Assembly: GCA_951406725.2 (NCBI GenBank)
Contig: OX597832.1
Location: 18,166,001 to 18,230,000 of the forward strand
Length of the DNA: 64,000 nucleotides
From: Octopus vulgaris
Lineage: Eukaryota
Direction: 5' to 3'
Each line of letters starts with the position of its first letter. Positions within the stretch are counted from its first letter, which is position 1. A program made the translations under genes and the position numbers. The notes under the pieces are model-generated. The model worked only from the letters and a program-made list of their open reading frames with translations. It searched no databases and was not told the origin of the DNA. Positions 1-52,305 of the stretch are shown here, piece after piece.

Positions 1-103
1 TTCCTTTCTATCGAAGAGCGTAGGCTCGAAACATAAAAGTATTTCTCACCTCCCGAGTGTTAGACTAATACATCTGCTTGTTGTTTACACATTCGTCTTC
101 GTC
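1..103 (+). mobile_element. Short Penelope-like/retrozyme-like element, family C, with degenerate minimal hammerhead; truncated by window start
   Basis: CTTT-CTATCGA-A-GAGC-GTAG-GCTC-GAAA-CATA-AAAG at 4-39; downstream sequence matches copies at 13270-13462 (-) and 16960-17168 (+). Confidence 0.6.
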
Positions 104-104
104 A

Positions 105-516
105 TACTCTTTACTCTTTTACTTGTTTCAGTCATTTGACTGCAGCCATGCTGGAGCACTGCCTACAGTCGAGCAAATCGATCCCGGGACTTATTCTTTG
201 TAAGCCCAGTACTTATTCTATCAGTCTCTTTTGCCGAACCGCTAAGCGACTGGGACGTAAACACACCAGCATCGGTTGTCAAGCAATTCTAGGGGGACAA
301 ACACAGACACACAAACACACACACACCCACACACATATATATATACATATATACGACAGACTTCTTTCAGTTTCCGTCTACGAAATCCACTCACAAGGCA
401 TTGGTCGGCCTGGGGCTACAGCAGAAGACACTTGACCAAGATGCCACGCAGTGGGACTGAACCCGGAACCATGTGGTTTGTTAGCAAGCTACTTACCACA
501 CAGCCACTCCTGCGCC
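105..516 (-). mobile_element. Full-length tRNA-derived SINE, family 1 (OR-type octopus SINE; name tentative)
   Basis: Minus strand starts GGCGCAGGAGTGGCTGTGTGG (A box), GGTTCCGGGTTCAGTCCC (B box), internal TA/GT microsatellite, 3' (AAAGAGT)n tail; matches 42353-43052 and 63440-63911. Confidence 0.9.
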
Positions 517-530
517 TATATATATAATAT

Positions 531-795
531 GTGACAATACCTATGATAAATCTCCGAGTTTCGGATGTCGGGGCGGAAACCCATCTCTTCAGTTATCGGC
601 CATCGAAATAAATGCTATTTTTCTATAATCCGATAATTGAAGAGATGGCGGCGTGGGTTTTCGATCCGATATACGAAACTCGGAATTTATCATAGCTACC
701 GAAAAATTGTCGCGTATTATATTTACAGATAAATTCCTCTATTTACATAATATCGAGGTCTATTTCGTTGTCTTGCCATTTCTTTCAATATAAAT
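531..795. mobile_element. Fold-back element, family A, hammerhead-like motif in each arm
   Basis: Inverted arms 541-599 and 630-695; minus arm reads GATAA-CTGAAGA-GATG...CATC-C-GAAACTCGGAGAT-TTATC; homologous to 2986-3305 and 42561-42776; flanked by TA/GT repeats. Confidence 0.75.
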
Positions 796-1700
796 CTGTG
801 TGTGTATATATATATATATATATATATATATATATATATATATATATATATATATATATATGCGTGTGTGTGTGTGTGTGTGTATAGCGAGAGAGAGAAA
901 GAGAGAGCGAGAGCTAGATAGATTGATAGATAGATAGATAGATAGATTGATTGATATAGATATCTTATTCCACGCACATACAAATGAAATATGCATTGAA
1001 GTTTCTTTACCTAACGTAGAATCTGCAAGAAATATCTTTATGCGAGATATAGCTCTCTCGTCTTCAAAATTCATGTCGATTTCGGCATATCGCAAATCTT
1101 TCAATCATTCAAGATCTATATCAAAGTCTGTTTCGCTTCTCAGTCTTATTGTTTACCCAGAATGCGGCAGCGAGGATTTAATTAATTTTCTCGGACGCAA
1201 CGTTAGCACCTGCGCTCACTTGTTAATCACTGTCACCTACGGCGGGTTTCACCTGTCATAACTATCTGTTTGTAGGCTTTACTCGGTTCTCTAGGATGTA
1301 GACCAATCTCGGGTATGAAATTGCGGGAAGCTGAATAACATCACTTCATCGGTGCTGTATTGACCAATTACTGATATTTAGATCTGTTTAGCTGGTTAGA
1401 AAATTCGATTTTGTTCAACCAGTGTACTGTACGTAAAATGACCATGATTATTTGTTTACATACATACATACATACATACAAGATTCAAAGCTCCAAGTGC
1501 CCCGTTCTTGTTTTTTGCATCGTCTGTCCGAATGTTTTTTGGCACCTGTTATTTTCTTGTTCCTTTTTTGTCTGGGATACAGTAAAAATTATTAATACAA
1601 GTAATAAGAGAGAGACCACATGTGGTCACTCTAACGCTAGAAATAGATTCGCAAAGGGAATCCACCACTAAAGAATTGTTCTCAAGCATTAATTCAACCA

Positions 1701-50229: not shown

Positions 50230-50490
50230 GTTCTTTTATTCTCGTATTTGTTTCAGTCATTTGACAGTAGTCATGCTGGAGCACCGCCTTTAGTCGAAAA
50301 AATCGACCCCAATACTTATTCTTTGTATGCCTATAACTTATTGGATCGGTCTCTTTTTGCCGAACCGCTAACTTACGAAGACGTAAATACATCAACATAG
50401 ATTTTCAAGCGATGATGAGGGGGGCTACACAGACACACACACAGACACACACACACACACACACACACACACACACACACACACACAAAC
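50230..50490 (-). mobile_element. Family 1 SINE 3' half
   Basis: TTGTTTCAGTCATTTGAC, CATGCTGGAGCACCGCCTTTAGTCG, CTCTTTTTGCCGAACCGCTAA. Confidence 0.82.
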
Positions 50491-50717
50491 GCATATATAC
50501 ATAAGTATATTATTTATGTATGTATTATTAGATGTATGTATTATTTATACATAAAGGAGTATTAATTATAAATTTTATAAGTAAAATCATGTAATACTTA
50601 TCGGCAATCTACTGAAACACGTTTAAGTTCTATCAGGCAATTAATATCCTATCTAAATATTAAATTCATTATCATTAATATTATTTTTTTATTATTTTTT
50701 CTTAATTGTTATTATTC

Positions 50718-51130
50718 TTTTCTCAGAGCGCTCTGGTAGATATTGTGAGAGCGGAGAGCAGCCTGCTGCCAATGGTATCTCAGTGTCTTTTTCTGCACAT
50801 TCTAACCTTTGATACTTGGTTTTTAATTATCGTGGAAGACATTCAACATCCAAGTACCAATTTCTAAATCCTAGCTGTCCAAAGCAGAGCAGTTTTAGGG
50901 GTTGTTCTGCACTCAATGTGAGTTTCTTAGACATATTTCTCGAACTTCGTTGTTAGAGCTACGGATGCTCCTACAACTACTGGAAAAGTGATGACTGTTA
51001 GAAGGAATTCCATCACAAAAACGATACTGACAGACTGCATGTACCTTCTTTTGTGTTGCTTTTGGGTGGTTGCTTCGTTTTTGCTGCCACATATCCTGCA
51101 AAGGAGTAATTCGCTGCTCTTGTCTTTTAG
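50718..51130 (-). mobile_element. Decayed Dong/R4-clade 3' end
   Basis: Manual translation FPVVVGASVALTTKFEKYV*ETHIECRTTPKTALLWTARI*KLVLGC*, then 3' UTR running into AAT-rich sequence; left and right limits approximate. Confidence 0.7.
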
Positions 51131-52189
51131 GAACTTAATGTAATTAATTTTCAGTGCTACGTATGTATGTATCTATGCATATATGTATGTATGTATTTTC
51201 TATCTATCTATCTATCTATCTATCTATCTATCTATCTATCTATCTATCTATCTATCTATCTATCTATCTATCTATATATATATATCTATCTATCTATCTA
51301 TCTATCTATCTGTCTATCTATATATCCATCTATCTATCTCCCTATGTATCTATCTATCTATCTATCTACCTATGTATCTATCTATCTATGTATCTATCTA
51401 TCTATCTCTCTATCTATCTATCTATCTATCTATCTATCTATCTATCTATCTATCTATCTATCTATCTATCTATCTATCTATCTATGATCTATGTATCTAT
51501 CTCCGTGGCTGTGCATCATTTCAATCAACTGCAGGTAATGAAACAATAACTGCGTATATTGTTGTGTAATAGAGTAAGACTGGTGAAACAAGTTTCAAAT
51601 GAGGAATGAAAAATACTTCCTTCCTCTATAATTCTGGTTTGCAAATGGAAAATTCCTACTGAGCGTTGTGGAATTTTCAGACACTTTTTTTTAAACAACC
51701 AATTTCGGATTACCGTCTTTGTATATAGACTATAACAGTCGACATGCTTCATACGTTAAACAGCAGGGTAATTATCCAAAACGCAGGACCGGATACTTAG
51801 AGGCATATCTTCAGCCATTATTTTTTTGATGTCGAATTTGCAAATTACACTGCTAGGTCGATGAAATAATTCATAGTTGAGCACTGAAGTCAATCTAAAC
51901 GGCCCCACCCCACACTCCAGATATTCTAGTTTTGGTCTCTATAAAAGAAAGAATTAAACACACACACACACATGCACGTACATATACGTATATATATATA
52001 TATATATATATATATATATATATACATATACGTATATATATATATATATATACATATATATATATATATACATATGTGTATATATATATATATATATATA
52101 TATATATATATATATATATATATATATATATATATAATATATAAGTATATGTATATATATATATATGATATATATATATATATATACGT

Positions 52190-52305
52190 ATAAGGAAAAT
52201 AAGGAAAGAAGGAGGGTTAAACGTTTCGAGCGGAGCTCTCCGTCGGAAACATAGGAGAAGGAAGGATCCAGATAAGGGAAGACAGAGGAAAAAAATCGCC
52301 AACGA
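52190..52305 (-). mobile_element. Family C-like short element with degenerate minimal hammerhead
   Basis: GTTT-CCGACGG-A-GAGC-TCC-GCTC-GAAA-CG-TT-TAAC; (TA)n on both sides. Confidence 0.55.

Follow-up and report, generated by a model that had tools for sequence, protein, structure and literature searches.

Penelope-like elements (PLEs) of animals carry minimal type I hammerhead ribozymes with a small helix III in their pseudo-long terminal repeats (pseudo-LTRs), and many such families can occur in one genome (Cervera & de la Pena 2014, PMC4209133). Craig et al. (2021, PMC8557442) described the inverted copy, the one-sided tail and a (TA)n bias tied to the zinc linker of PLEs. Additionally, PLEs are discussed as candidate mobilisers of retrozymes of 170-400 nt, and a coral was reported to contain more than 6000 hammerheads in 16 families (PMC7229834, PMC7761336); retrozymes in turn were described as derivatives of pseudo-LTRs (Li, Clavereau & Pollet 2026, 10.64898/2026.07.22.740005). 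Both what PLE hammerheads do and what mobilises animal retrozymes are treated as open questions in the literature (PMC7761336; 10.64898/2026.07.22.740005). With respect to cephalopods, 31 recently active PLE families were reported from an octopus, in an account whose excerpted parts do not mention ribozymes (PMC13282606), and 235 Rfam hammerhead loci from a squid (PMC6962438).

The DNA analysed here is a stretch of 64,000 nt from Octopus vulgaris (assembly GCA_951406725.2, contig OX597832.1, positions 18,166,001 to 18,230,000 of the forward strand), referred to as the window, which was compared with the 2.80-Gb genome sequence (227 contigs). Its hammerhead-bearing loci are best explained as pseudo-LTR 3' ends of many PLE families, each with a predicted self-cleaving type I hammerhead; the GIY-YIG endonuclease and reverse transcriptase (RT) of the elements themselves likely inserted them at TA microsatellites. 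The probability of this reading is estimated at roughly 90%.

Hammerhead layouts in the window and across the genome

The repeats of the window (34.5% GC, about 100 TA runs) were identified by masked self-BLAST and named with family letters of our own. Mapping of natural copies from the rest of the genome onto the window yielded 14 loci with type I hammerhead layouts in about nine families:

4-103, forward: remnant of an E-like PLE 3' end with a decayed minimal hammerhead, core CTATCGA
516-791, both strands: family A inverted pair, arms 516-598 (reverse) and 631-791 (forward, with long tail), 3' ends outward; hammerhead at 545-597 (reverse) with U16.1>A
1572-2509, forward: 525-nt non-coding hammerhead unit of the ACTCTA family, made up of an inverted arm (1572-1698) and a forward copy longer than one unit (1955-2509), and followed by (TA)n
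2275-2350, forward: intact-looking type I hammerhead of the ACTCTA family with core CTGAGGA and a palindromic helix III; helix I is ACTCTA/TAGAGT, positions 10.1-11.1 are U-U, and cleavage is predicted after A2344 (GUA)
2693-2920, forward: C-like repeat with the CTGAAGA...GAAA core only, without helix I
2977-3304, both strands: family A inverted pair, both hammerheads decayed, left arm tailed
4383-4978, reverse: 5'-truncated family G PLE, GIY-YIG C-terminal remnant (4777-4978) plus 3' untranslated region; hammerhead at 4499-4537 (reverse) of the U3-A8 type, with 1-bp helix II and G5>U in this copy
12328-12702, forward: PLE 3' end of family D, sharing about 97% identity with genome copies; helix I of its hammerhead (12420-12500) extends across an internal loop, and cleavage is predicted after C12496 (GUC)
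13270-13440, reverse: E-like PLE 3' end, decayed hammerhead
16959-17168, forward: family E PLE 3' end flanked by two (TA)n runs, minimal hammerhead at 17035-17071
17235-17551, reverse: D-like PLE 3' end, hammerhead helices I and III weakened in this copy
24490-24797, both strands: family B inverted pair flanked by (TA)n on either side, with a tailed reverse arm (to 24646) and a forward arm at 24655-24797
24679-24766, forward: intact-looking type I hammerhead of family B with the palindrome ACGATCGT; helix I is ATGCAG/CTGCAT, positions 10.1-11.1 are U-U, and cleavage is predicted after A24760
39745-40022, forward: family C repeat, young (copies 95-97% identical), between TA runs
42560-42774, both strands: family A inverted pair between (TA)n runs; hammerhead at 42698-42756 (forward) with U4>C
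52190-52309, reverse: family F (element of about 200 nt), 3'-truncated copy with a decayed minimal hammerhead, core CCGACGG

The original prediction, made from the letters of the window, had claimed one shared hammerhead layout in at least six groups of elements at about 12 loci. The layout is indeed shared, but only three of the 14 loci pass a hammerhead descriptor, the other 11 having core or helix defects; these include two C loci with the core and without helix I. The family C repeat at 39745-40022 is not regarded as a hammerhead, since it has the core letters only and lacks helix I and A15.1. The quoted motifs were all found: ACTCTA/TAGAGT with ACAATTGT at 2275-2350 (forward), ATGCAG/CTGCAT with the palindrome given above at 24679-24766 (forward), GATAA/TTATC with ACTC-N-GAGT in the three inverted pairs at 516-791, 2977-3304 and 42560-42774, ATTTC with ACCGGT at 4499-4544 (reverse), and ACGT types at 17035-17071 (forward) and about 52213-52250 (reverse). 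The stem I proposed for the 4.5-kb element requires correction, as the homologous register lies one repeat further in and forms a 7-bp helix I; the resulting pattern GAGAAAT-TTGAAAA-GAAAATAC is present in eight of 16 readable G copies, with near variants in the others and G5>U in the window copy.

Two matches in the window (2275-2350 and 24679-24766) were detected with a strict type I descriptor, which called for CTGANGA, helix II of at least 3 bp, GAAA, helix III, UH and a Watson-Crick helix I; dinucleotide shuffling, 100 times by each of two schemes, produced none. Allowing G-U pairs and the U3-A8 core added 12420-12500, giving three matches as compared with 0-1 in 30 shuffles; when strict helix II pairing was required, the motif at 12.4 kb was the sole match. 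The Rfam hammerhead models had no match at gathering score in the window, and at E<=5 no hammerhead was among the 150 listed of 395 matches, the listed ones being microsatellite-driven microRNA noise.

The descriptor that allows G-U pairs and the U3-A8 core was applied, with 15 shuffles, to 80 unselected 10-kb stretches of the genome (800 kb), which contained 20 motifs against a shuffle mean of 0.67 (range 0-3). This density of about 24 motifs per Mb extrapolates to some 68,000 intact-looking hammerheads in the genome (95% range 40,000-106,000). The window is not special in this respect: its three matches compare with 1.6 expected, P(>=3)=0.22. In 1.17 Mb of fetched and largely family-selected DNA, 161 distinct matches formed 23 sequence clusters, 12 of them singletons, a few of which may be chance matches. 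First-look candidate counts of 579-3300 per family are not copy numbers. Further hammerhead families, each with helices of its own, were noticed in the flanks of L021, L041, L063, L072, L094, L115, L141, L142, L156, L160, L166, L170, L178 and L236.

These figures bear on the idea that the motifs are chance matches in AT-rich, repeat-rich DNA. The descriptor is short, and individual shuffles of the 800 kb reached up to three matches; the excess over shuffles and the fixed place and strand of the motifs in PLE 3' ends nevertheless refute it for the named families, and its overall probability is close to nil. The proposed control with shuffled sequence thus turned out in favour of the original prediction, and its wider picture of a dense, diverse and TA-associated Penelope/retrozyme system is borne out by this density, by the 23 clusters and by the direct links to PLE coding sequence given below.

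Typical copies of families A, B, D, F, G and ACTCTA pass the type I descriptor, whereas those of C do not and E has A6>U. Helix I differs completely between the 23 clusters, while core, pairing and palindromic helix III persist, a covariation that is partly circular because pairing was required by the descriptor. Within lineages, core-anchored extraction revealed compensatory changes of helices I and II between subfamilies, as the original prediction demanded (counts are sequences, not independent events): in B, helix II pair 2 is AT in 31 and TA in 4; in D, helix II pair 6 is CG in 20 and TA in 4; between E and F, and helix I pair 4 is CG in 31 and GC in 5. Family G has helix II CG and TA subfamilies. 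The helix III blocks form no hairpin alone and have self-pairing energies of -6 to -10 kcal/mol (-1.7 for ACGT), as expected for dimer-active hammerheads.

Counted against activity were the U-U at 10.1-11.1 of B and ACTCTA and the U6 (A6>U) that is fixed in E, the related family F having a normal A6. Family E is young (window 17040-17046; L171-L190) and shows CTGTNGA with four different letters at N7 and kept helices, the window core being CTGTTGA; it may be an active hammerhead with an unreported U6 core. These features lead to another view, according to which the elements are PLE ends with hammerheads that no longer cleave and persist as passengers by descent or in some other structural role. 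The defects in 11 of the 14 window loci speak for it, as do the fixed A6>U in young E copies, the bare core letters of young C copies, the 1-bp helix II of old G copies, a monomer fold in which the hammerhead is not favoured, and the thriving of Naiad PLEs without canonical hammerheads (PMC8557442). We regard it as unlikely, though not negligibly so: helices that differ fully between clusters retain core, pairing and helix III, compensatory changes occur within lineages, and both U10.1-U11.1 and helix II of 1-2 bp occur in natural hammerheads (PMC3088659). The turnover of helices with a kept fold points to selection on the fold in the source elements.

Links to Penelope-like coding sequence

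A frame with RT thumb, zinc linker and GIY-YIG motif was found in the flank of one locus and used as a genome query. The search yielded 26,572 candidates, and a stop-free frame of 811 aa was present in ten of the 116 that were scored. The deduced protein comprises the RT, followed by a CX4CxxC linker and, at the C terminus, a GIY-YIG domain in one frame (linker and endonuclease motifs read by eye); it scored 30.9 bits with the Pfam profile RVT_1 (cut-off 29.6) and had no match in the PDB by sequence. This G lineage contains many near-identical intact frames. In ten full-length loci (L161-L170), the pseudo-LTRs are in direct orientation, truncated copies are inverted, one end bears a tail and the flanks consist of TA; their hammerhead, located downstream of the open reading frame (ORF), shows a U3-A8 core, mostly a 7-bp helix I, a 2-bp helix II and an ACCGGT helix III. 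Positions 4777-4978 of the window encode an endonuclease end that is 57-63% identical to the intact 811-aa frame; the 4.5-kb element of the window is an older relative. The 811-aa protein was matched by 19 of 19 other loci of the window G family, among which long copies were favoured, as the query reached near the ORF.

Two further observations concern the G lineage. In an old subfamily (L111-L130), the 7-bp helix I and the U3-A8 core are kept and helix II consists of one G-C pair. At about 2230-2420 of L161, an ATG lies some 30 nt past the tail of the upstream pseudo-LTR and is followed about 170 nt on by a donor-like site (CAG/GTGAGT), possibly of a retained intron as in other PLEs.

Coding sequence also precedes the hammerheads of other families. 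For family D, an upstream GIY-YIG sequence was detected in nine of 19 loci, the query locus included, and for family E an endonuclease in three of 19 loci on the same strand, with RT thumb, linker and endonuclease. The D-like family is linked to a GIY-YIG endonuclease in L221. Family A has an upstream endonuclease frame in L279 (E 1.7e-9), the end of which is common to L274 and L278 by DNA similarity. In family B, L259 contains what remains of an endonuclease (E 7.3e-9) and shares 1.3-1.5 kb of upstream sequence with five other loci. For A, B and D it was the endonuclease alone that was seen, within flanks of 1.5 kb. In families with a coding link, the hammerhead lies downstream of the ORF, inside the pseudo-LTR and on the sense strand. 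Longer copies of families A, B, D, D-like, E and G run upstream into GIY-YIG-coding sequence, and these six are accordingly classed as PLE 3' ends.

The term mini-elements used in the original prediction therefore fails for these six families, which are 5'-truncated 3' ends of protein-coding PLEs, and holds demonstrably only for the 525-nt ACTCTA family. The same upstream coding sequence refutes, for these families, the proposal that all families are independent non-coding ribozyme mini-elements (retrozymes) spread via small circular RNAs. ACTCTA, F and C, described below, lend it some support; against it, upstream lengths of family A copies vary when searched with a single arm, the inverted core lying within 420 nt in 4 of 23 loci only, and no long tandem arrays were seen. 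As an account of all families it is very improbable.

Insertion anatomy and TA microsatellites

The arms of inverted pairs face outward in 66 of 67 cases; in A and B, the junction varies from copy to copy, the arms are unequal and a tail is present on one side only. Minority variants are common to both arms more often than expected (A, 30 observed and 12.5 expected; B, 46 and 14.6; ACTCTA, 30 and 3.1), in keeping with a single template for each event, though gene conversion from one arm to the other could be another source. Each family has two fixed 3' end points, a short end located 37-162 nt and a tail end located 110-265 nt 3' of the predicted cleavage site (one copy per family). The tail of full-length G elements corresponds to the beginning of the unit that follows. 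The full anatomy of pseudo-LTRs, inverted copy and one-sided tail was observed in L161-L170, and traits of it also in A, B, D and ACTCTA.

Palindromes of 200-300 bp at TA resemble miniature inverted-repeat transposable elements (MITEs) of the Tc1/mariner type. Searched with a palindromic query, all 26 family A loci were inverted pairs and looked like a 220-bp palindrome, which would suit a view of A and B as MITE-like DNA transposons with an incidental resemblance to hammerheads. The variable junctions, unequal arms, one-sided tails, solo and long copies and the links of both families to a PLE endonuclease led us to reject this view, which is left with a very slim chance.

According to the original prediction, most elements abut (TA)n. 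In the window, a (TA)4+ run lies no more than 14 nt from an end in 11 of the 14 loci, a count that is partly circular because some boundaries were set by eye. In genome copies, (TA)4+ follows the end in 11 of 12 D, 18 of 19 E and 20 of 25 C copies and in 12 of 20 tail ends of A, as compared with 1.9% of random positions. Short ends scored lower (14/47, 18/43 and 20/47), since many of them continue into the tail. In unselected DNA, TA occurred within 300 nt downstream of nine of 15 matches against a background of 24%. The 5' side of family F adjoins TA in nine of 19 copies, which favours a pre-existing target.

With regard to the end points themselves, both lie just before internal TATATATT stretches in the full-length G elements L161, L162, L166 and L167; this was not clear in other families. 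The points at which copies end may thus be set by a short stretch of homology to the (TA)n target. Moreover, families are nested in, or share, each other's TA tails (L025, L071, L089, L170 and L207), resulting in TA-linked element clusters.

Taken as PLE ends with their own insertion machinery, the loci suggest the following course of events. The endonuclease would cut (TA)n, and reverse transcription would be primed at the cut, as a rule stopping early and often flipping strand, which would generate the short outward-facing pairs. Since the predicted cleavage site precedes both end points by 37-265 nt, the template would be an uncleaved, tandem or re-ligated RNA. Tandem transcripts may cleave as dimers, as the palindromic helix III suggests, and a PLE likely mobilised the 525-nt unit, which has no ORF, in trans. 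The majority of genomic copies would be dead on arrival.

Several results weigh against this reading. The Pfam GIY-YIG profile remained below its cut-off of 22.6 bits (13.9-16.8; 13.9 for the 811-aa frame), and the endonuclease was therefore called in part from motifs recognised by eye; the coding links of A and B comprise one clear locus each. Two of four control repeats also often adjoin TA (46/84 and 7/10; the other two do not), and TA adjacency alone does therefore not demonstrate targeting; empty target sites were not seen. In monomer folding, none of five motifs was better than its shuffles (z -1.3 to +0.1); a sixth stretch, from L161, contained too little of its motif and was disregarded. 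A minimal PLE hammerhead cleaved poorly even as a dimer (PMC4209133), and eight of nine Xenopus retrozyme dimers showed no cleavage while one cleaved (10.64898/2026.07.22.740005). Finally, F and C had no tie to coding sequence in the loci examined.

The window contains other repeats as well. Abundant SINE-like (short interspersed element-like) families are located at 120-296, 355-515, 1697-1930, 5495-5728, 40649-41068 and 58287-58567, and two of these also adjoin TA. A 3' remnant of an ORF resembling that of a long interspersed element (LINE), which we take to be of the RTE type, occupies 25304-25759 and has a C2H2 finger at its end. A probable decayed LINE extends over 53164-56099 (reverse), where the frame 53624-53989 presumably corresponds to a restriction-like endonuclease end. 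Neither of the CTGANGA sites at 27917 and 51814 was counted as a hammerhead. The sequence CTGAAGA...GAAGCATGTC at 51730-51825 (reverse) resembles a decayed hammerhead of a further family and has no homolog among the fetched loci.

Non-coding units and comparison with known systems

The ACTCTA family differs from the PLE 3' ends described above in that the sequence upstream of its hammerhead runs into its own tail, thus forming a closed head-to-tail unit with a period of 523-530 nt in four loci. The unit has 33% GC and a longest ATG frame of 73 aa, and its copies are 92-98% identical. Among 27 loci, two tandem hammerhead copies are present in four, one copy per strand in eight and an inverted arm of some kind in 20; closed unit, GC content and tandem hammerheads fit the retrozyme outline. 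In the window, the SINE-like insertion at 1697-1930 split the element later on and has a flanking duplication. The joint 2481>1955 occurs in three contig sets guessed to be RNA, but also in a large DNA-looking run and in the genome itself; the guessed-RNA contigs cover parts of the unit and are of a kind that cannot show ends, strand or circles. The unit is likely a non-autonomous PLE or a retrozyme that hitch-hikes on the PLE machinery. More specifically, the family may be a young retrozyme that gives rise to a circular RNA, with a PLE acting in trans to insert it. This proposal is tentative, with odds clearly below even; if true, the inversions, the two fixed end points 3' of the cleavage site and the TA targets would be direct genomic footprints of the proposed partnership of retrozymes and PLEs, in a genome whose hammerheads belong to 20 or more families.

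Family F consists of copies of about 200 nt with clustered 5' ends, and family C has a unit of about 700 nt (L198/L208) without coding match, both of which could be cited for independent retrozymes. No autonomous partner for ACTCTA, F or C was detected among the fetched loci (best 40 candidates per genome search). Family C is young and abundant and shows PLE-type inversions, a tail and TA ends with hammerhead core letters only (L191-L210 included). Its loci L198 and L199 (C5, about 168 kb apart) are near-identical including the flanks, likely as a result of segmental duplication.

The octopus genome provides a test bed with its tens of thousands of intact-looking hammerheads, a PLE with an intact frame and a non-coding hammerhead unit with a PLE insertion signature. 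With the intact G element and the ACTCTA unit, mobilisation in cis and in trans could be tested directly in the presence and absence of an active ribozyme. With regard to annotation, many short palindromic or SINE-like repeats in this genome are better classed as PLE ends.

In comparison with the PLE hammerheads described in PMC4209133, the octopus families likewise occur mostly as solo truncated copies, as opposite-strand pairs 100-700 bp apart and in few full PLEs, and share the short helix I, the extra nucleotide after A9 (E and F), U3-A8 (G) and the palindromic helix III. In contrast to that account, several families have palindromic helix III blocks of 8-9 nt and helix II regions of 45-60 nt, B and ACTCTA have U-U instead of G10.1-C11.1, and E has A6>U. 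The G lineage resembles the Neptune and Nematis PLEs with C-terminal endonuclease (PMC8557442) in the order of RT, CX2-5CxxC linker and GIY-YIG, a resemblance assigned by eye. Further common traits are partial tandems as pseudo-LTRs, an inverted 5'-truncated copy, a one-sided tail, the pseudo-LTR hammerhead and the (TA)n bias, whereas the tails measure about 40 to 150 nt here and 30-40 bp there (PMC8557442). The C-like copy at 2811, with CTGAAGA and GAAA 11 nt apart and no helices, is similar to the 'HHR_core' of Naiad (Craig et al. 2021); no Naiad coding sequence was seen next to C copies in the loci examined, and this link is a lead only.

Like the animal non-LTR retrozymes, the ACTCTA unit is non-coding, low in GC, arranged head to tail, equipped with one type I hammerhead and coexistent with PLEs (PMC7229834; 10.64898/2026.07.22.740005). 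Unlike them, it measures 525 nt, outside the range of 170-400 nt (PMC7229834), has at most two tandem hammerhead copies, is mostly solo or inverted, and displays PLE-type inversions and tails; nor were contacts between loops 1 and 2 identified in its hammerhead.

No paper on these families or on a natural U6 core was found, although supplements, Repbase, Dfam and Zenodo repeat libraries may already name the families. Lunse, Weinberg and Breaker reportedly described PLE-associated hammerhead variants cleaving as dimers in 2017, which may already cover variants called unreported here. The type of system, the TA bias and the hammerhead variants are already published; what is new are the families of PLE-borne hammerheads together with at least one retrozyme-like non-autonomous unit.

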